A model generated the notes under the pieces. That model was given only the letters and a program-made list of their open reading frames with translations, was not told the DNA's origin and searched no databases. Both the position numbers and the translations under genes were made by a program. Below, piece by piece: positions 23,615-33,290 of a DNA stretch of 64,000 bases. Source of the stretch: a delta proteobacterium MLS_D (GTDB lineage: Bacteria > Desulfobacterota > Syntrophia > Syntrophales > UBA2210); NCBI GenBank assembly GCA_002030015.1, contig LQBH01000001.1, forward strand, positions 3,190-67,189, written 5' to 3'. How positions within the stretch are numbered: the first letter of the stretch is position 1; every line of letters begins with the position of its first letter.

Positions 23615-23741
23615 AAAGACTGTCAAGTAAACATGGGTGGAGATTTTAATCACTATCCGGCTGACATCGTTGCGGGAACGGGTGATTCCGATGCTTTTCG
23701 AAGACGCCGACCCGCGGCGGGATCAGCTCCGAATGACAATC

Positions 23742-23796
23742 TGTAACCCGGACAGTTTATGTGCTACAAACCCGGACAGTTTACGTGTTACTAACA
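23742..23796. mobile_element. Isolated insertion-sequence end (IS481/IS1202-like), no transposase
   Basis: Tandem 23-bp repeats AACCCGGACAGTTTAYGTGYTAC (23745-23767, 23769-23791; 21/23 identical), terminating in ...CTAACA. Confidence 0.55.
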
Positions 23797-23813
23797 CAAA
23801 ATGAACTTTCCAC

Positions 23814-24156: not shown

Positions 24157-25515
24157 GTGGTGAAAGGTATGCGTTGCTTGATTATTTCTGCGGCGGTTCT
24201 TGCCATGATTCTGGCCTTCGGTTCGACATCGTCGGCGGAAGCGCCCAAGGGAGAGCCGATTGTCATCGGTTATGTCGGCTTTACGCTTTCCCCGGGTACG
24301 AGGCCCTGCATGGACGTCCAGAGAATTGCAGTAGAGGAGATCAATCAGGCGGGCGGTGTTCTCGGACGGCCGTTGAAGTACGTAACAGCGGACAACAAGG
24401 GTCAGACCTCGCTTACTGTCGAGGGTGGCCGCCACCTGCTTCAGACTGAAAACGCCAAGTTTATATCCATCGAAGGACGGACGGAGATCTGCCTCGCCGC
24501 TCAGGAGAACTCGGCGGCAATGTTCAAGGACTATCCCCATATCCTGGTTTTCAACGGGCCCATGGGGATGGAACTGACGTCACGTGTGCTTGATGATTAT
24601 GAAAAGTATCGCTTCTGCTTCCGCGACTGGGATCCCGAGTCATCTCACTATGCCCAGCAGCGCTATTACTGGGAAGACACCTGGAACCGGATGCGGCCGG
24701 AGGGTTTCAAAAAGATCGCTTTCATCTGGGAAGACCTGGCATGGACCCATGCATGGCAGAAAGGCATTGACTTTCTGGATCTGCCCGACTGGGAAAGTTA
24801 CGCAGAAGGGTTCGGATACGACGTCGTGTTCAGCCAGGCTGTGGCGCCCCGGGGAACGATGTATCTTCCCGTTCTACAGCAGATAGCCCGATCCAAGGCC
24901 GACCGTATTTTCTACGTCAGCTCCTGGTTCACCGACACGGAATCATTCGTGAAACAGTGGGCTGATTCGGCGGCCCGTGACATTGCCGTCGACCTCTACG
25001 GCGGCGTATCGCAAACCAAGGCCTTCTGGCAGATGACGGGCGGCAAGGCCCTTGGCGTGGTCGGTTCCTACACGGAAACGGACATTCCCATGACGGAGAA
25101 GACGAAGCCCTTCTATGAAATGGCGAAGAAGAATAATATTCCCACCCAGATTCACGTTCACATCGCCTATGCCGACATCTACTTCTTCAAGAAGGTCATC
25201 GAAAATGCCGGCGGCGTGGACGACATCGACAAACTCATTACGGCCATGGAGACCTCGGAGACCACTTATTCCATGGGCAAGATGGCCTACGAGTCGGAGC
25301 GGGTGAAACCCTTCTTCCATTCGAAGAAGCGCGTGGATCCGAAGGATCCCGCGAGGGCGACCTATCCGGATGTCTTCCTGCAGCCCATCGCCCAGTACCA
25401 GAACGACGGCAAGATGCAGTACCTGGGCGGTTCCTGCCCCGAGAACGAACCTTTCTGGGAACCCTACGGTTCGCCTGAAGACTGGGTTTCGCCGGCAGAA
25501 TTGCGCAAACGGTAA
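24157..25515 (+). CDS. ABC transporter periplasmic substrate-binding protein (LivJ/PBP1 type), orphan
   Basis: Signal peptide; AVEEINQAGGVLGRPLKYVTAD family motif; RBS AAGGAGG. Confidence 0.85.
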   Translation: MVKGMRCLIISAAVLAMILAFGSTSSAEAPKGEPIVIGYVGFTLSPGTRPCMDVQRIAVEEINQAGGVLGRPLKYVTADNKGQTSLTVEGGRHLLQTENAKFISIEGRTEICLAAQENSAAMFKDYPHILVFNGPMGMELTSRVLDDYEKYRFCFRDWDPESSHYAQQRYYWEDTWNRMRPEGFKKIAFIWEDLAWTHAWQKGIDFLDLPDWESYAEGFGYDVVFSQAVAPRGTMYLPVLQQIARSKADRIFYVSSWFTDTESFVKQWADSAARDIAVDLYGGVSQTKAFWQMTGGKALGVVGSYTETDIPMTEKTKPFYEMAKKNNIPTQIHVHIAYADIYFFKKVIENAGGVDDIDKLITAMETSETTYSMGKMAYESERVKPFFHSKKRVDPKDPARATYPDVFLQPIAQYQNDGKMQYLGGSCPENEPFWEPYGSPEDWVSPAELRKR

Positions 25516-25545
25516 GGGGGAATCGCACCTGTTACCTTTGAACTG

Positions 25546-25587
25546 AAAAAGAGCCCCGTTCCGGCATTCCGGAACGGGGTTTTTTAT
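25546..25587 (+). terminator. Intrinsic terminator (possibly bidirectional)
   Basis: AAAAAGAG-CCCCGTTCCGG-catt-CCGGAACGGGG-TTTTTTT. Confidence 0.85.
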
Positions 25588-25785
25588 TATTTGGTTGTTG
25601 GATTGTTACCTTTCCATCCCCTGCGAACGCGAAAGAATCTGTGCAATTCAGCCGCGTGCTTTGCTCATGTCTGCCCAGGCGAACCGTCACTAGAGGTTTC
25701 TCCGCTGTTGTGGATTTTACCGGGGAGTGGTGTTACAAGAAAGTGTCAGGCGGGAACACCGGAAGATTGATACTCTGAAGGAGAT

Positions 25786-28461
25786 ATGGTCGGCATGAAA
25801 ACGAATTACCTGATGGCGATCGACGTGGGAGGGGGTTCCGGGCGCTGTTTACTTCTTGACCCCGATACGGGAACGGCGCATTCGGCACAGCGGAACTGGA
25901 CCCATCCCGCCGCGGCCGGAACGGACGGCCTGGGTTATGACATTGATTCCAACGATGTGCTGAAAAAACTGGGAGAGGCTTCTCGCGAGGTTCTCGCGGT
26001 CGCGGCAGTCGATCCCGGACAGGTTGCCGGCATAGCGGCGGGCGGCATGCGGAATACCATTGTCGTGCTGGACGCCGGGAACGACATTCTACTGGCGACA
26101 CCCAACCGTGACGCCCGGGCCCTCGGCGAAGGCCTGGTTCTGGGATCCGAACGGGGACAAGAGATACACGCCCTCACGGGACACTGGCCGACGCCGCTGT
26201 TTCTCGGAACCCGCCTGCTCTGGATGAAAAACAACGCTCCCGAAATCTTCAAGCGGGCCGCCGTCGCCCTCTCAATCACCGACTGGATGACCTTTATACT
26301 GTCTGGGCGCATTGTTTCTGAACGTTCGCAGGCGGGCGAGTCATTACTCCTTGACTTGAAGCAGGGCGCGTGGGCCGCCGATCTTATTGAATCACTTGAA
26401 CTCTCGGTGTCGTTCTTTCCGGAGCTTGTCGATTCTGGTACGTTTCTGGGAGGCCTCACGAAAGATGCGGCCGACCTTCTCGGTCTTGTTCCCGGCATAC
26501 CGGTGGCGGCCGGGGGAGCCGACACCCAGTGCGGTCTTCTGGGAACGGGCGCCGTGCGGGACGGTGACCTGGCCGTCATGGCGGGAACGACCATGCCGCT
26601 GCAACTGGTAACCGATGACCTGGTGCTTGACGAATCGGGATGCCTCTGGAGCGGGTTACACGTGCTTCCGGGTAAATTTATTCTGGAAAGCAACGGGCTG
26701 GTTACCGGCGATATAGTCGACTGGTTCGCCCGTCTTTTGTATCCGCTGTTTTCCGAGGCGACACTCTGTCTTTTTGCGGAAGCGGCTGCCTCCCGTCCGG
26801 GAGCGGAAGGTGTATATTCCACGTTCGGTGCTTCTCTGTTCGACGGCAGGAATGTCGGGTTTCCCGTCGGCAACCTGACCTTTTCACACATGATCACGGG
26901 AGATCCCTCGCGAAGCCGGACGCATATCGCCCGCGCGCTGGTCGAAGGGATCGCTTTTTCCGTTCGCGCCAATCTGGAACAGCTTGTGGCTGTTTCCGAA
27001 CGGGAAATTCCTCTGGTACGGGTATCGGGCGGTATGTCAAAGAGCCGGCTTTTCACGCGGATTATTTCCGATGTAACGGGACGGTCGGTTCTCGTGCCCG
27101 CCACCGGCGAAAGTACGTCCGTCGGCGCCGCCCTGCTGGCCGGCGTCGGCGCGGGGCTGTATCCTGACCCGGTATCGGCGGTCGAGGCCGTGGTTGCGGC
27201 GTCCGAAAAGCACAGTCCGGGAGATGAATCACCGAAATACGGCAGCCTCTATGCGGGCTGGCGGCAGGCTTTTGATAAACGCGGCGAAGCCGACAAAATA
27301 ATAGGTGATCTGCTCACGGCCTCCCTGTTTGAACCCGGCCCCACAGCCGGCAGAGCGGCCGACCCGTCTTTTGTGCCCGAGATCTGCATCACGGCTTCCA
27401 TGGACGCAGTAGCGCTTGATGAATTTGAAAAGAGGGGTTCCGTTACGTACGCCGATTGGAGAGAAACGCAGAAATTGTACGATGGAGGCGCTGATCTGGC
27501 GCGGATTCTCGCCGGGAAACATATATTCGTAACCGAGATGGACGTCGTGGATTTTGAGACCATTCGGGATGCCCGCGATCTTCGGGCTATCGTCACCTGC
27601 CGGGGAAACGCGGTCAACGTCGACCTGGCGGCGGCAACAGCCTACGGTATTCCGGTCATCAACACGCCCGGAAGAAACGCCGACGCCGTTGCGGACCTGG
27701 CGGTTGCCTTTATGGTGATGCTTGCCCGTAACATGCCGGGTTCACTTGATTTTCTCAAACACGGAGAGGTTCGTGAAGGCGATATGGTGAAGATGGGCGA
27801 CGCGTACCTGGGCTTTCAGGGAGAGGAGCTCTGGAGGAAAACTATCGGACTGGTAGGCATGGGAAGCGTCGGTGCCCGCGTAGCCGAACGATTAGCCGGA
27901 TTCGGAGCCGAGGTGATTTTCTTTGATCCGGGGGTTACGGCCGAAGCGGGGGCGCTTGCCGGGGGACGGAAAGTATCTTTCGAAACCTTGCTGGCCGAAA
28001 GCGATTTCGTGAGTCTTCACGCCCCCGTAATGGATACTACAAAGGGGATGATAAACCGTGCCGCTTTCGAAAAAATGAAAAAAGGCGTTTTTTTCATCAA
28101 CACTGCGAGGGCATCCCTGGTGGACGAAGCGGCCCTGCTGGAAGCACTGAACGCGGGAAAGGTCGCCGGCGCCGCACTGGACGTGTTTCCCGTCGAACCC
28201 CCGGGGTCTGACGATCCCGTTGTTTCACATCCCAACGTTATCGCCACGCCTCACCTCGGGGGGAATACGAAGGAGATCGCCGCACACCAGGGAGCGACAG
28301 CCGTCAGCGAGATCAGAAAACTCCTGGCCGGCGACAGGCCCGATTATATTCTCAATCCCGACGTTCTCGACGGGCTCAGCTGGACGTCGCCCCGTCCGCA
28401 GCCGGACGAAAAAAAACAAAAGGAGCTTGCCGCGAACCCGAGACCCTCGGTGACGTCATGA
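25786..28461 (+). CDS. Fusion: FGGY carbohydrate kinase (LsrK/YoaC-like) + D-isomer-specific 2-hydroxyacid dehydrogenase (YoaD/SerA-like)
   Basis: Kinase: YLMAIDVGGGSGR, GGADTQC, AGTT, SGGMSKS. Dehydrogenase: NTPGRNADAVA, GLVGMGSVG, INTARA, LDVFPVEP, TPHLGG. One uninterrupted 891-aa ORF. Confidence 0.88.
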   Translation: MVGMKTNYLMAIDVGGGSGRCLLLDPDTGTAHSAQRNWTHPAAAGTDGLGYDIDSNDVLKKLGEASREVLAVAAVDPGQVAGIAAGGMRNTIVVLDAGNDILLATPNRDARALGEGLVLGSERGQEIHALTGHWPTPLFLGTRLLWMKNNAPEIFKRAAVALSITDWMTFILSGRIVSERSQAGESLLLDLKQGAWAADLIESLELSVSFFPELVDSGTFLGGLTKDAADLLGLVPGIPVAAGGADTQCGLLGTGAVRDGDLAVMAGTTMPLQLVTDDLVLDESGCLWSGLHVLPGKFILESNGLVTGDIVDWFARLLYPLFSEATLCLFAEAAASRPGAEGVYSTFGASLFDGRNVGFPVGNLTFSHMITGDPSRSRTHIARALVEGIAFSVRANLEQLVAVSEREIPLVRVSGGMSKSRLFTRIISDVTGRSVLVPATGESTSVGAALLAGVGAGLYPDPVSAVEAVVAASEKHSPGDESPKYGSLYAGWRQAFDKRGEADKIIGDLLTASLFEPGPTAGRAADPSFVPEICITASMDAVALDEFEKRGSVTYADWRETQKLYDGGADLARILAGKHIFVTEMDVVDFETIRDARDLRAIVTCRGNAVNVDLAAATAYGIPVINTPGRNADAVADLAVAFMVMLARNMPGSLDFLKHGEVREGDMVKMGDAYLGFQGEELWRKTIGLVGMGSVGARVAERLAGFGAEVIFFDPGVTAEAGALAGGRKVSFETLLAESDFVSLHAPVMDTTKGMINRAAFEKMKKGVFFINTARASLVDEAALLEALNAGKVAGAALDVFPVEPPGSDDPVVSHPNVIATPHLGGNTKEIAAHQGATAVSEIRKLLAGDRPDYILNPDVLDGLSWTSPRPQPDEKKQKELAANPRPSVTS

Positions 28462-28530
28462 TGATGCGGGTGGAAAGATCCGGGCACGGCTGTTTGCAAT
28501 GATAACAGATCAGGAAAGGAAGCGCGGACT

Positions 28531-29208
28531 ATGAGCGTATACGAAACCTATCAGAAAGAAGTACTCCAGGCGGGTCTCTGGCTCTCGGAACACGGTTTTT
28601 TCGGTTCTCTGCGGGGTACCGGCGGAAACGTATCAGTCAGAATAGCGGGGGAAGACCTGATGGCCGTTACCCCTTCGTCGGTGAAATATCACGAGATTAC
28701 GCCGGAGGATATTTGTATCGTCGACCTTTCGAGTACCCTGGTGGAGGGGGAACGCGCCCCTTCAATCGAGGCGGGAATGCACGCCGCCGTTTACCGCGAA
28801 AGGCCGGATGTGAAGGCCGTCGTTCACACACACCAGACGTACGGAAGTGTTTTTGCTCTGATCAATCGTTCCGTCCCCGCCCTGTTCGACGAGGTTGCCT
28901 TCGCCCTGGGGGAAAAAATAGACATGATTCCCTACGCCCTGTCGGGAAGTCCGGAACTGGCGGCCAACGTGGGGCACGCGGTCAGGAACAATGCAAACGC
29001 CTATATAATCAGAAATCACGGGATTATCGCCCTCGGAAAAAATATGGACAAGGCGCTGCTGGCCGCCGAGCTCCTTGAAAAGGCCGCAAAAACTTACTGT
29101 ATTGCGCTTTCAACCGGAGTCCCCGTTGTCGAGCTGCCGGACGACGTTCTCGAGATGGCACGTGGCCTGCGGGAATACGAGGCGGAAGAAGCGAAAAAGA
29201 AAGGCTGA
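28531..29208 (+). CDS. Class II aldolase/adducin family (fuculose-1-P aldolase-like)
   Basis: GGNVSVR, TPSS, PSIEAGMH, VHTH and NHG zinc ligands. Confidence 0.9.
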   Translation: MSVYETYQKEVLQAGLWLSEHGFFGSLRGTGGNVSVRIAGEDLMAVTPSSVKYHEITPEDICIVDLSSTLVEGERAPSIEAGMHAAVYRERPDVKAVVHTHQTYGSVFALINRSVPALFDEVAFALGEKIDMIPYALSGSPELAANVGHAVRNNANAYIIRNHGIIALGKNMDKALLAAELLEKAAKTYCIALSTGVPVVELPDDVLEMARGLREYEAEEAKKKG

Positions 29209-29282
29209 ACGCCCCGGAATACAAAATAATTAAATTGTTTCAGCGTTTCCACGAAGAGTTTTCCCACCATCGGGAGGTTGCC

Positions 29283-30863
29283 ATGGCGAAAGAACCTATT
29301 TCCAGGCGCGGGTTTCTGAAACGATCACTCTGGACAGGCGCCGGCATCGGCGGTGTGGCGCTGGCGGGAGGAGGGGTTTATAAACTCCTGCGGGTCAGGG
29401 ACATCGAGAAACTTGTCGGTGCTTATCCCGGAGGAGCGGAACATCACGCCCTCGAAATAGTGAACGGCTCGGCGCCGCGGCCGAACATTGTGCTTATTTA
29501 TTGCGACGATCTGGGTTACGGGGATGTGGGTTGCTTCGGCAACTCGGTTATCCGGACGCCCCATGTCGACAGCCTGGCGGCTGAGGGTACGCGTTTTACC
29601 GAATACTATGCCTGTAATGCCGTGTGCGCGCCATCGAGGGCTGGTCTGCTTACCGGCAGATACCCACTGCGGACCGGCATCATCGGCAACACCTATCCCG
29701 AAAACGAACCGGTGGGCAGAAGGATGGCCAGGAATTTCGGTGTAATGCTGAAACACCTCGGGGTGCTGGATATCCGTGAAGAATATGTGGCGCGAGGTAT
29801 CGACGCCGCCGAAATAACCCTGGCGGAAGCGTTGAAAGTCGCCGGATACCGCACCGGCATGATGGGTAAGTGGCATCTCGGTGATTACAGCACCAATCAG
29901 GATTTCAACCCTCTGCGCCACGGGTTTGACTACTATTTCGGCGTTCCCTACAGCAACGACATGAGGCCGCTTCCTCTGTACCGTAACGAGACCGAACTCG
30001 ATGCCGACCTTGATTCGGGAGAAAAACAGGCGAAACTCACCGGCCGGTATACGGAGGAAGCGGTTAGATTCATAGAAAATTCTTCAGGCGGCCCCTTTTT
30101 CCTGTACCTGGCGCACACCTTTCCACACCAGCCGCTCTTTCCTTCCGAGCGGTTCGAAAAACAGTCGCGCGCGGGAAAATTCGGCGACGTGGTCGAGGAA
30201 ATCGACTGGAGCGTCGGGGAGATACTGAAATGCCTTGAGAGAAACGGCCTCGATCGTAATACCCTGTTGATATTCACCAGTGACAACGGTCCCTGGTACG
30301 AAGGCAGTACCGGCAGTCTTCGCGGGCGGAAGGGACAGAGTTATGAAGGCGGTTTCCGGGTCCCCTTTATCGCCCGGTGGCCGGGGAACATTCCGCGGGG
30401 AAGTGAGAATGCCGCCCCGGTGATGAACATCGATCTCTATCCCACACTGCTGTCGCTGGCGGGCGTCGGTCTGCCCCGGGACAGGATTGTGGACGGGAAA
30501 GATATTATGCCACTGCTCACCGGGACACGTACGCAATCTCCCCACGATGCGCTTTACTTTTTTCATTACGATCAACTGGAGGGGATCAGGGCAGGCAGGT
30601 GGAAATATTTTGATAAACTGCATCGCTACACATGGCCTATAGCCCTCGACGCCGCGGTGGTTCCGAATAAGCTGGGAGCCGATCAGCTGGGCGACAGGTG
30701 GCCCCTGTTGTACGACATCAAGCGTGATCCGGGAGAATCGTACAACGTCATCAACACCTATCCCGACGTGGCCGAACAACTGAAAAAGAAGATGGATACG
30801 TTCAGAAATCTCATGGCGGAAAATCCCCGGGGATTTAAAAACCGCTCTTCGTCCGCAATGTGA
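29283..30863 (+). CDS. Tat-exported Cys-type formylglycine-dependent sulfatase (arylsulfatase A-like)
   Basis: SRRGFLK twin-arginine signal; PNIVLIYCDDLGYGD, CAPSRAGLLTGR, GKWHLG, SDNG, YEGGFRVP. Confidence 0.92.
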   Translation: MAKEPISRRGFLKRSLWTGAGIGGVALAGGGVYKLLRVRDIEKLVGAYPGGAEHHALEIVNGSAPRPNIVLIYCDDLGYGDVGCFGNSVIRTPHVDSLAAEGTRFTEYYACNAVCAPSRAGLLTGRYPLRTGIIGNTYPENEPVGRRMARNFGVMLKHLGVLDIREEYVARGIDAAEITLAEALKVAGYRTGMMGKWHLGDYSTNQDFNPLRHGFDYYFGVPYSNDMRPLPLYRNETELDADLDSGEKQAKLTGRYTEEAVRFIENSSGGPFFLYLAHTFPHQPLFPSERFEKQSRAGKFGDVVEEIDWSVGEILKCLERNGLDRNTLLIFTSDNGPWYEGSTGSLRGRKGQSYEGGFRVPFIARWPGNIPRGSENAAPVMNIDLYPTLLSLAGVGLPRDRIVDGKDIMPLLTGTRTQSPHDALYFFHYDQLEGIRAGRWKYFDKLHRYTWPIALDAAVVPNKLGADQLGDRWPLLYDIKRDPGESYNVINTYPDVAEQLKKKMDTFRNLMAENPRGFKNRSSSAM

Positions 30864-30913
30864 CGGTTCCCGAATGCCGCGAGTTTCCACCTGTTTGTGA
30901 GAAATGATTGATT

Positions 30914-32134
30914 ATGGACAGCCTGTCACTGCTCTTGAAACCGGCGTCGTACCGCTGTAACCTCGAGTGCTCTTACTGTTTTTACAGGCGGGTCGCCGGT
31001 GTTTACGAACAACCGTCGACGTTCATGAAATACGACGTCCTGGACATGCTCGTCAAAACCGCCATGACGTCCGGCGCCCGGCGGGTTTCTTTCTGCTGGC
31101 AGGGCGGCGAACCAACGCTGATGGGTGTCAATTTTTTCAGGAATGCCGTTGAATTGCAGAGAAAATACGCCCGGCCGGGTCAGCAGGTCGAGAACCTGCT
31201 CCAGACGAACGGCGTGCTGCTTGACGACGACTGGTTTCGCTTTCTTCGCGACAACCGTTTCCTGGTGGGAATAAGCCTCGACGGACCGGAGAATATCCAT
31301 GACGCGTACCGCGTCGACCGAAACGGCGAAGGCACGTTTCAGCGGGTAATGGATGTGGTTGACGGCATGAGGACGGGCGGGGTTGATTTCAATATTCTCA
31401 CCCTGGTGCATGATAAAAACGTTCGGCAGCCTGATCGGCTGTATGACTTCATGCGCCGAAACAATTTCAATTATCTCCAGTTTATACCCTGTTTTGAAGT
31501 CGATGAGAAATCGGGGAAGGCACTGCCTTATTCGGTTGACGGCAGGGAACTCGGCGAGTTTTATTGCCGGCTCTTTGATCGATGGTACGAGGACGGGTTT
31601 CCCTACGTGTCGATACGGCTTTTCGCTGATATCCTGATCTACCTGGTTGACGGTGCTCTGACGTCCTGTTCCTGGCTTGAAGAATGTAAATCTTATATCG
31701 TGGTCGAGCATAACGGGGATTGCTATCCCTGTGATTTTTTCGTGTATCCCGAATGGCGCCTCGGCAATATAATGGAAGACAGCCTTGCATCCATCCTGGA
31801 CGGTAAAGCGAGAGAGGAATTCAGCGCCATGAAGACTGATATTCCGGCGGCTTGCCGTCATTGCCCCTTGTTCGACTTCTGCCACGGAGACTGCACGAGA
31901 TTCAGGTGGGACGGAACAGGTGGATATAGGGACGTCAGCCGGTACTGTGAAACCTGGTTGATGCTTTTCCGGCACATCGACCCGGTGAAAGACGAGATGC
32001 GGGATCGCGCCGTCCGGTTGAGAGAATCGATTCTGAGCGGTCGGTTTGATCTGATCGGCAGGAACCAGCCCTGTCCCTGCGGGAGCGGTAAAAAGCTCAA
32101 ACATTGTTGCGGCAGGGGCGCGCCGGTTATATGA
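30914..32134 (+). CDS. Anaerobic sulfatase maturase (radical SAM/SPASM, anSME) with C-terminal SEC-C motif
   Basis: CNLECSYC, WQGGEP, QTNG, ISLDGP, YPCDFFV, CxxCxxxxxCxGxC, GRNQPCPCGSGKKLKHCC. Confidence 0.92.
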   Translation: MDSLSLLLKPASYRCNLECSYCFYRRVAGVYEQPSTFMKYDVLDMLVKTAMTSGARRVSFCWQGGEPTLMGVNFFRNAVELQRKYARPGQQVENLLQTNGVLLDDDWFRFLRDNRFLVGISLDGPENIHDAYRVDRNGEGTFQRVMDVVDGMRTGGVDFNILTLVHDKNVRQPDRLYDFMRRNNFNYLQFIPCFEVDEKSGKALPYSVDGRELGEFYCRLFDRWYEDGFPYVSIRLFADILIYLVDGALTSCSWLEECKSYIVVEHNGDCYPCDFFVYPEWRLGNIMEDSLASILDGKAREEFSAMKTDIPAACRHCPLFDFCHGDCTRFRWDGTGGYRDVSRYCETWLMLFRHIDPVKDEMRDRAVRLRESILSGRFDLIGRNQPCPCGSGKKLKHCCGRGAPVI

Positions 32135-32223: not shown

Positions 32224-32994
32224 ATGTCCAGGGTATACTTAATAAGATGTTTCACGTGGGCAAGACGGCACATTCAAGCCTTTGTGCGCCGGTACACGGG
32301 ATACATGAATTCTCCCTCCGTACTCAGGCGTGGCGTCAGTTTCGCCGTATTTTCAGGTGTGCTTTTCCTGGCCGTCCTGGGCCTGCTGCATGTTATTGAT
32401 CCATACCCGCTGAGAGACTGGATCTATCTCCGGCTCAGTCTTCACGACCTCGGGGCGGCGGGACCGATCATCTTTATCTTGCTGGCCGGCGTCCTGCCGC
32501 TTTTTTCACCTTTGAACATACTGGTAGTGACCGGCTCGGCAAGTTTCGGACCGGTAGTCGGTATGATCCTGTCCTACCTGGGGGCCCTGATCAACGCCAA
32601 CATCACCTTTATTCTCGTCAAGGCGCTCGGCGTCGAGGACAAATGGGGGAACAGCCATCGTCAGGCCCGGATCAAAAGGAACATTCAACGCAACGGATAT
32701 CCCATTGTACTGCTGCTGCAGATCATCTCGATTTTTCCCTTCGTCGCCATCAATTCGGCGGCCGCTGCCGCCGGAATAGGGTGGAGGGATTTTATGAAAG
32801 CCAATCTCCTGGGTGTTATTCTCCCCATCGCGGTTTACTCGTTTTTCGGGGAAGCGATCGTCCTGGAACTGTTATCGCCCCGGATGTACTGCGCCTTCAT
32901 AATAGTAATATTTTTGACTATCGTGATTGTCGCATTGAGGGAGAAAAGAAATTCTCATCGGGGGCGAGGACAGCGTCAGCTTCGCAGGGAATAA
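32224..32994 (+). CDS. TVP38/TMEM64 (DedA-superfamily, SNARE-associated) membrane protein; start 32224 or 32305
   Basis: G..GPIIFI, FGPVVG..LSYLGA, PF.AIN.AAA..GI.W.DF...N.LG pattern. Confidence 0.75.
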   Translation: MSRVYLIRCFTWARRHIQAFVRRYTGYMNSPSVLRRGVSFAVFSGVLFLAVLGLLHVIDPYPLRDWIYLRLSLHDLGAAGPIIFILLAGVLPLFSPLNILVVTGSASFGPVVGMILSYLGALINANITFILVKALGVEDKWGNSHRQARIKRNIQRNGYPIVLLLQIISIFPFVAINSAAAAAGIGWRDFMKANLLGVILPIAVYSFFGEAIVLELLSPRMYCAFIIVIFLTIVIVALREKRNSHRGRGQRQLRRE

Positions 32995-33214: not shown

Positions 33215-33290
33215 TGGCGTCCCCACGGGGAGTCGAACCCCGGTTACCGGCGTGAAAGGCCGGTGTCCTAGGCCACTAGACGATGGGGAC
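33215..33290 (-). tRNA. tRNA-Glu (TTC)
   Basis: Reverse complement GTCCCCATCGTCTAGTGGCCTAGGACACCGGCC-TTTCAC-GCCGGTAACCGGGGTTCGACTCCCCGTGGGGACGCCA; cloverleaf, encoded CCA. Confidence 0.97.

Follow-up and report, generated by a model that had tools for sequence, protein, structure and literature searches.

Does a run of five co-oriented genes in a Syntrophales genome encode one catabolic system, or have separate systems come to lie next to each other? The run (positions 24157 to 32134) lies in a 64,000-nucleotide stretch of the delta proteobacterium MLS_D, hereafter the window (contig LQBH01000001.1, positions 3,190 to 67,189), and consists of genes for an ABC substrate-binding protein, a kinase-dehydrogenase fusion, a class II aldolase, a sulfatase and the sulfatase-maturing enzyme anSME. 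An original prediction, made from the sequence alone, had read all five as a single system for the catabolism of a sulfated carbohydrate. We find that the run very probably contains two independent modules that stand side by side, and that do so in one genus only. One of them is a conserved unit of an LsrK-like kinase, a 2-hydroxyacid-type dehydrogenase and a FucA-type aldolase; the other is an ordinary sulfatase-anSME pair with nothing unusual about it. The features concerned are as follows.

24157..25515, + strand: orphan ABC substrate-binding protein of the Leu/Ile/Val/urea type (Pfam PF13458, Peripla_BP_6, E 1e-23)
25548..25585, + strand: terminator-like hairpin 3' of the binding-protein gene, with an A run before it and a T run after it (folding, z -5.8)
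25786..28461, + strand: fusion of an LsrK-like FGGY kinase and a D-2-hydroxyacid dehydrogenase, 891 aa (Pfam/NCBIfam)
28531..29208, + strand: class II ketose-1-phosphate aldolase of the FucA/DrdA type (profile scans, catalytic motifs)
29283..30863, + strand: Cys-type formylglycine sulfatase with a twin-arginine motif (PF00884, motifs)
30914..32134, + strand: anSME, radical SAM/SPASM with a C-terminal SEC-C domain (TIGR03942 above cut-off, Pfam)
32224..32994, + strand: VTT/DedA-family membrane protein, the final gene of the block (PF09335)
33215..33290, - strand: tRNA-Glu(TTC), whose 3' end the block adjoins (tRNA search)

The layout itself was as predicted. All five open reading frames (ORFs) in the ORF list of the window lay on the + strand at these coordinates, with gaps of 69 bp between fusion and aldolase, 74 bp between aldolase and sulfatase, and 50 bp between sulfatase and anSME. 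None of these three inner gaps contained a terminator-like fold in comparison with shuffled sequences (z +0.6, +0.8 and +1.0), so the claim that no terminator separates the fusion from anSME stands. This includes the gap at 29209-29282, where a terminator had been named as a sign against a single system and where the sequence folds like its shuffles.

The fusion joins, as had been proposed, an FGGY kinase (about residues 5-515) to an NAD-type D-2-hydroxyacid dehydrogenase (about residues 530-860) by Pfam and NCBIfam assignment, and its predicted structure reached a pLDDT of 88. Judged by its residues, the protein appears catalytically intact: the dehydrogenase domain carries the Arg-Glu-His triad (R775, E804 and H823) and a GxGxxG motif (G691, G693 and G696) with D714 after that strand, and D246, R775, D799, E804 and H823 were invariant in 43 aligned family members. 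The substrate loop of the dehydrogenase reads CRGNAVNVD, and no equivalog exceeded its cut-off in the profile scan. LsrK was the best solved relative of the kinase by sequence and by fold, the fold search otherwise returning other FGGY kinases, yet the kinase scored only 242.8 bits against NF008187 (LsrK; cut-off 528); with the FucK profile it scored 123 bits against a cut-off of 471. Homologues with 72-73% identity bear the names Smithellaceae and Syntrophaceae, in keeping with an organism near the Syntrophales. In the aldolase, N33, P48-S49-S50, S78, E80, H99, H101 and H163 supply the catalytic Glu, the three metal-binding His residues and the phosphate loop. Its closest solved relatives were FucA and DrdA; FucA profiles gave 123-158 bits against cut-offs of 264-400, and it was the sole class II aldolase found in its genome.

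The same three activities recurred in relatives. Our comparison covered 132 module loci, the window included and close kin counted separately, and counts of the SCP2 domain refer to 110 loci. At a threshold of E 1e-50 the search for homologues yielded 371 proteins; among the best 120 homologue clusters, 21 were chains of 1094-1473 aa with SCP2 in addition, and all of these except a single partial entry had an aldolase too. SCP2 was part of the chain at 41 of 110 loci, 38 of which also had the aldolase in the chain, and these SCP2-bearing forms were 48-51% identical to the window's fusion over 890 aa. A separate aldolase gene was present at 21 of 110 loci by our own gene calls, and many Actinomycetota loci were without one nearby. 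Among Anaerolineae, 28 of 251 sampled genomes were module-positive, with both the fused form and split operons of SCP2, dehydrogenase, kinase and aldolase (and in some cases aldehyde:ferredoxin oxidoreductase, AOR) in several gene orders; locus L246, for example, reads GntR-SCP2-dehydrogenase-kinase-aldolase-AOR-aminotransferase-M28-HpnA. The annotated neighbours of the loci included no transporter conserved beside the module. In the best tree the window-type two-domain fusions formed one clade (SH-aLRT 100) nested among the four-domain proteins, both apart from the split forms, and this tree favours descent of the two-domain from the four-domain form by truncation. The core module is real and uncharacterised, and its kinase, oxidation and class II aldol cleavage chemistry is of a known kind.

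The sulfatase and anSME behaved as a pair of their own. That they are a sulfatase with a twin-arginine (Tat) motif and its maturase was borne out: the sulfatase carries CDD at residue 74, CAPSR at 115, LLTGR at 122, GKWHL at 195 and SDNG at 333, with the twin-arginine motif SRRGFLK at residue 7, and anSME scored 408.7 bits against TIGR03942 (curated cut-off 349.45) and has the radical SAM cysteines C15, C19 and C22 as well as the SPASM cysteines. The closest solved sulfatases were steryl-sulfatase (E 5e-78) and arylsulfatase A, followed by GalNAc-6-sulfate and carrageenan sulfatases. Of the 132 module loci, 4 had the pair next to the fusion, all of them close kin at least 86% identical to the window; in the 83 others whose downstream DNA extended for 2.5 kb or more, phmmer found no sulfatase. 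The query reaches distant members of the family, as it retrieved a 27% identical sulfatase by tblastn. Conversely, neither fusion nor aldolase was present in any of 18 sulfatase-orthologue loci of other genomes, several of them on short contigs; nine of these had a full or large anSME adjoining and two a short remnant. One 100% complete genome (G013) has anSME and a sulfatase 79% identical to the window's, and lacks both the fusion and the aldolase. Across the class, the fusion occurred in 23 and the sulfatase subfamily also in 23 of 339 genomes, and both in six, of which three belong to the window's genus and three have the two genes on different contigs. This genome-wide co-occurrence had a p value of 0.002 across the class, 0.11 without the window's genus and 0.66 within the largest family. 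The expectation that the sulfatase and anSME would be linked to the kinase and aldolase in other genomes therefore failed outside one clade.

The binding protein is likewise separate from the run, because it is of the wrong family, has its own strong terminator and is a backbone gene in G002, another genome of the genus. The hairpin at 25548-25585 has 17 pairs followed by the T run (-31.7 kcal/mol, z -5.8; none of 200 shuffles was equally stable), and it stands before the fusion, in the 270 bp between the end of the binding-protein gene and the fusion start. Peripla_BP_6 is not a sugar-binding family, no permease gene adjoins the window's copy, and a Leu/Ile/Val-type binding protein was upstream in none of the 97 other module loci with at least 2 kb of upstream DNA. 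Its own genome holds three clear paralogues (30-69% identity) and two weaker matches. In G002 an 82% identical orthologue is the immediate neighbour of tRNA-Glu, at a distance of 117 bp; the entire 7.6-kb block is absent there, and the orthologues of the aldolase and of the VTT protein are on other contigs. In G003 the same tRNA-Glu site is taken by an unrelated island. The binding protein is thus part of the genus backbone and lies outside the block that follows. We also considered an integration signature for the block and saw none: the far side has no duplicated tRNA end (longest match 8 bp), and GC content shows no anomaly (0.561 for the block against 0.553 for the window). Of the five-gene system, then, the kinase-dehydrogenase-aldolase and the sulfatase-anSME units survive, while their linkage and the binding protein do not; a block beside a tRNA gene can mimic an operon.

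What the relatives have around the module points towards lipids. The epimerase-family gene 5' of the four-domain protein scored above the HpnA cut-off in all three cases tested (420-428 against 367.65 bits). The operon class III aminotransferase had its best plasmid matches, about 50% identical over the full length, in Streptomyces, and in one annotated Streptomyces region the matching aminotransferase belongs to an hpnCDE-shc-hpnH cluster; we call it HpnO-like because of this match and its position, since no curated HpnO model matched in the scan. The operon HpnA proteins grouped with HpnA of Anaerolineae shc/hpnH clusters at moderate supports (87/93 and 86/76). Neighbours at the 132 loci included AOR at 18, an M28 hydrolase at 11 (in three lineages), HpnA at eight and HpnO-like proteins at seven, and a few further loci have genes for a P450, a lipid-transfer thiolase, or ChsH2-like or KshA-like proteins at their flanks. 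HpnA exceeded its cut-off in 8 of 28 module-positive and 11 of 223 other Anaerolineae genomes (Fisher p 3e-4, with kin that are not independent). Hopene cyclase was found in none of 53 module-positive genomes, with 11 of 15 comparison genomes positive, and in one metagenome contig (L146) the four-domain gene lies within an shc-hpnG-hpnB cluster. In hopanoid synthesis the tail is reported to derive from ribose via ribosylhopane and HpnO to make the aminotriol; according to the same account, neither the enzyme that reduces the tail to the tetrol nor the role of HpnA is known (PMC12583986). The module-linked homologues of these side-chain enzymes, in operons with four-domain and split forms, have a different setting: their genomes have no hopene cyclase, a cleaving enzyme and AOR are encoded next to them, and they are missing from the window's genome.

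These observations suggest a route by which a polyol would be converted to dihydroxyacetone phosphate (DHAP) and an aldehyde. The FGGY domain would use ATP to phosphorylate the terminal CH2OH (C35 of a hopanoid), and the dehydrogenase would oxidise the C34 carbinol to a ketone with NAD+, the phosphate taking the place of the usual carboxylate; the reverse order of these two steps is possible. DrdA is reported to cleave (3R,4R)-5-deoxyribulose 1-phosphate (PMC6079011). A C35 phosphate together with a C34 ketone would make a 5-substituted D-ribulose 1-phosphate, the configuration cleaved by DrdA and FucA (PMC6079011), and the class II aldolase would split this analogue into DHAP and an aldehyde, which for a hopanoid would be bishomohopan-32-al. 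AOR or an alcohol dehydrogenase encoded elsewhere would then remove the aldehyde. In the relatives, the SCP2 domain would carry the lipid, and the M28 hydrolase, HpnO-like and HpnA-like enzymes would feed N-acyl and amino tails into the same route. With the kinase, dehydrogenase and aldolase all needed and the M28, HpnO and HpnA proteins as optional feeders, the scheme matches the pattern of conservation.

How firmly these parts can be held differs. The chemistry of phosphorylation, oxidation and aldol cleavage, yielding DHAP and an aldehyde from a polyol, is very probable from domains, residues and linkage, and in this respect the earlier reading of the module holds up. For the SCP2-bearing family, the odds that the substrate is a hopanoid tail are about even or slightly better. 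That the window's own copy acts on such a tail (ribitol-type, bacteriohopanetetrol) is somewhat less probable than that it does not, although this is the best of the readings compared. More tentative still is the full picture, in which the family would be an oxygen-free route that strips bacteriohopanepolyol C35 tails to C32 hopanoids and harvests DHAP from the membranes of dead cells, the window's copy would be a reduced form of it whose aldolase was recruited, and the HpnA encoded beside the module would act as the ribosylhopane/bacteriohopanetetrol oxidoreductase. The hosts of this possible route would be sediment and digester anaerobes among the Anaerolineae, Syntrophales and Solincola-type Actinomycetota.

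Several findings weigh against the hopanoid reading, most of them for the window, which is the least telling member of the family. Its genome (96% complete) lacks SCP2, any HpnA or HpnO orthologue (best 26% and 32%) and any match to the M28 protein; of the four-domain family and its operon, the orthologous kinase-dehydrogenase is present and the SCP2, HpnA, HpnO-like and M28 genes were not found. Within the class, HpnA exceeded its cut-off in 14 of 339 genomes, none of them among the 23 with the fusion (G185 fell just short). No hopanoid importer is conserved beside the module, and 2-hydroxyacid dehydrogenases normally need a carboxylate. Because hopene cyclase is rare in the module-bearing groups anyway, its absence from all 53 genomes shows only that the linked HpnA and HpnO do not serve synthesis there. 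An approximately unbiased (AU) test did not reject monophyly of the four-domain proteins (p 0.071; 51 of 101 rows, hand-picked to cover the clades). SCP2-free relatives lie beside sugar ABC or major facilitator superfamily (MFS) transporters (e.g. L248), and so the triad also serves soluble polyols. Finally, the window's aldolase is only about 30% identical to the aldolase domain of the fused chains. Its type occurs in 79 of 281 class genomes and, where the fusion is not nearby, mostly keeps company with a RuBisCO-like protein, an aminotransferase and another FGGY kinase; it is of another lineage than the fused aldolase and was therefore recruited from another pathway. By these comparisons, the window's version is a pared-down Syntrophales form with a recruited aldolase.

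The same facts leave room for a soluble substrate, an unlikely but serious alternative for the window's two-domain version: a small polyol (5-deoxyribitol, 5-methylthioribitol, ribitol or fucitol) would be converted to a pentulose 1-phosphate and split by the aldolase, which may double in the salvage of 5'-deoxyadenosine and 5'-methylthioadenosine (the DHAP shunt). The absence of SCP2 from the window's genome suits this view, as do an aldolase that is near DrdA and widespread without the fusion, and an MtnA score above the cut-off in 20 of the 25 genomes examined, among them the window's (there on another contig; at 21 other aldolase loci none was recognised up to four genes away). Dehydrogenases of the same subfamily (37-38% identity, with shared CR-x-x-x-VN-D and PGRNA motifs) accompany FGGY kinases in polyol-type operons, in Klebsiella one stands directly behind mtnB, and Sinorhizobium meliloti EryA is reported to phosphorylate adonitol (ribitol) (PMC3599248). 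The kinases of such operons, however, are about 25% identical to the window's, against 48-51% for the SCP2-bearing forms over the whole fusion; no transporter is conserved beside the two-domain fusion; SCP2, Fe-type alcohol dehydrogenase and AOR flank two two-domain loci (L107 and L108); and the R-N/H motif at positions 89-90 of the kinase pocket is common to the window's fusion and the four-domain forms, whereas most SCP2-free relatives have R-E/G. A different lipid whose head group is a polyol or amino-polyol, such as a phytosphingosine- or ceramide-type base that in this genus the sulfatase may first desulfate, is improbable. SCP2, M28, aminotransferase, AOR, P450 and thiolase neighbours would suit any lipid head group, the closest solved sulfatases are lipid sulfatases, and no terminator separates aldolase and sulfatase. 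For a 2-amino-1,3,4-triol, though, the aminotransferase would be essential and the dehydrogenase spare, yet the dehydrogenase is always there and the aminotransferase at 7 of 132 loci; moreover, the accessory genes are specifically HpnA- and HpnO-like, and the sulfatase linkage is restricted to one genus.

A single operon whose products would desulfate a carbohydrate in the periplasm, import it and cleave it is very unlikely and, as a conserved system, largely refuted. Four co-oriented genes with short gaps and no terminator, an order kept in three close relatives, and GalNAc-6-sulfate and carrageenan sulfatases among the next solved relatives speak for it; they are set against a binding protein that is of the wrong family and belongs to the backbone, the absence of sulfatase from 83 other module loci and of fusion and aldolase from 18 sulfatase loci, and the counterexample of G013. 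No sugar transporter or glycosidase supports sulfated-carbohydrate catabolism, and the methionine/S-box control that had been taken as a hint of a sulfur link finds no counterpart, as an Rfam scan of the 64-kb window gave two tRNAs only and no S-box or other riboswitch. Least credible is a sink for autoinducer-2 (4,5-dihydroxy-2,3-pentanedione, DPD), in which LsrK-like phosphorylation, reduction of one ketone and aldol cleavage would give DHAP and acetaldehyde. LsrK was the best match among NCBIfam models, sequences in the PDB and folds, and a SorC/LsrR-type regulator precedes three four-domain loci, but the kinase reaches 243 of the 528 bits that the LsrK model demands, no Lsr transporter is among the annotated neighbours (LsrF and LsrG were not searched genome-wide), and SCP2 is left unexplained. 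LuxS was found in none of 25 fusion-bearing genomes, with 5 of 14 controls positive, and endogenous autoinducer-2 was rejected as the substrate on this ground.

Compared with known systems, the module shares with FucK-FucA and with DrdK-DrdI-DrdA the step in which a class II metal aldolase splits a ketose 1-phosphate into DHAP and an aldehyde (PMC6079011). It differs in having no isomerase: the NAD-linked dehydrogenase, joined in one chain to the LsrK-like kinase, would supply the ketose. Relatives of the window's fusion add the SCP2 lipid carrier, and all FucA and FucK models stayed below cut-off. For a fucose/rhamnose pathway, no linked isomerase or permease was found among the annotated neighbours. 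In the S. meliloti erythritol/adonitol/L-arabitol locus (mptABCDE, eryA, rbtA, fucA1, eryB), an FGGY kinase phosphorylates a pentitol and fucA is reported to be dispensable (PMC3599248). Plasmid loci like this one encode three proteins consecutively, an FGGY kinase, a dehydrogenase from the subfamily of the window's enzyme and a class II aldolase, but their kinases are about 25% identical to the window's and sugar ABC transporters are present there. S. meliloti RbtA is presumably a dehydrogenase of the same subfamily. LsrK, the best match by profile, sequence and fold, is about 30% identical to the window's kinase, which unlike it is fused to a dehydrogenase and occurs in hosts without LuxS. 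Bacillus subtilis YoaD/YoaC also pairs a 2-hydroxyacid dehydrogenase with a sugar kinase, its function being a guess in that account (PMC2885750); the window has no S-box, and the likeness is one of description, not of compared sequences.

C32 acids and alcohols are common early products of hopanoid side-chain loss. Sediment hopanoids larger than C30 are described as arising by cleavage of the bacteriohopanepolyol side chain (PMC8600536). The literature searched, mostly titles and the openings of abstracts and without most subscription papers or any supplements, held no account of the fusion or of a pathway for hopanoid side-chain cleavage. The present comparison adds the linkage test with its negative outcome, the description of split operons, the counts of cyclase and HpnA, and the pared-down Syntrophales version with its recruited aldolase; the five-gene sulfated-sugar system is removed. 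A three-enzyme, ATP- and NAD-coupled assay would open hopanoid side-chain cleavage to direct testing; if the hopanoid reading is true, HpnA could gain a function, and a 2-hydroxyacid-dehydrogenase fold would act on a non-acid.

Some further observations concern the genes discussed above. The window-type aldolase belongs to a second recurrent cluster with a RuBisCO-like protein, an FGGY kinase, a class III aminotransferase, a short-chain dehydrogenase/reductase, an amidohydrolase and an MFS transporter, sometimes with a saccharopine-dehydrogenase-like or GlpD-like gene (L287-L290, L293-L296 and L302-L306 in Syntrophales; L229 and L231 in Actinomycetota); of 21 aldolase loci, 13 had the RuBisCO-like protein. 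In G096 and G184 an intact aldolase gene is directly preceded by what is left of the fusion gene (L299:5200-5400 and L300:8370-8550), which shows that the fusion is sometimes lost. Of the 251 Anaerolineae genomes sampled, at least 7 have hopene cyclase above the cut-off together with HpnA and, where scanned, HpnH (L269-L273, L276 and L281), and four Syntrophales-class genomes with high HpnA scores were also positive for hopene cyclase. The Leu/Ile/Val-type binding-protein family is expanded in the genus, with several copies in G002, G004 and G005 and the paralogues of the window's genome on C1, C20, C32 and C35. At 23738-23798, 5' of the binding-protein gene, a short tandem-like element has 97-100% matches elsewhere in G002 and G005. 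The G003 island at tRNA-Glu (L224:7033-18516) contains large helicase-like ORFs, as judged by the ORFs and not by a family scan.

In a Klebsiella pneumoniae record (L257:6890-10032), mtnB and the genes for an FGGY kinase and for a dehydrogenase from the window's subfamily point the same way, close to mtnC and mtnD. These genes could supply methionine salvage with a methylthio-pentitol; the set was rejected as a directly orthologous system, since its kinase is only 25% identical, and is kept as an analogy. ESM Atlas matches belonged to the same two- and four-domain families and carried automatic names only. In several Actinomycetota loci (L035, L136 and L228) URO-D/MtaA-like methyltransferase genes lie 5' of the kinase, and in L228 a stand-alone kinase (51% identity) lies beside an alpha-L-fucosidase-family gene. 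At nine loci (L107, L108, L111-L113, L116, L117, L126 and L190) a HAD-family hydrolase gene is directly 5' of the two-domain fusion, and its product could relieve the build-up of a phosphorylated intermediate.

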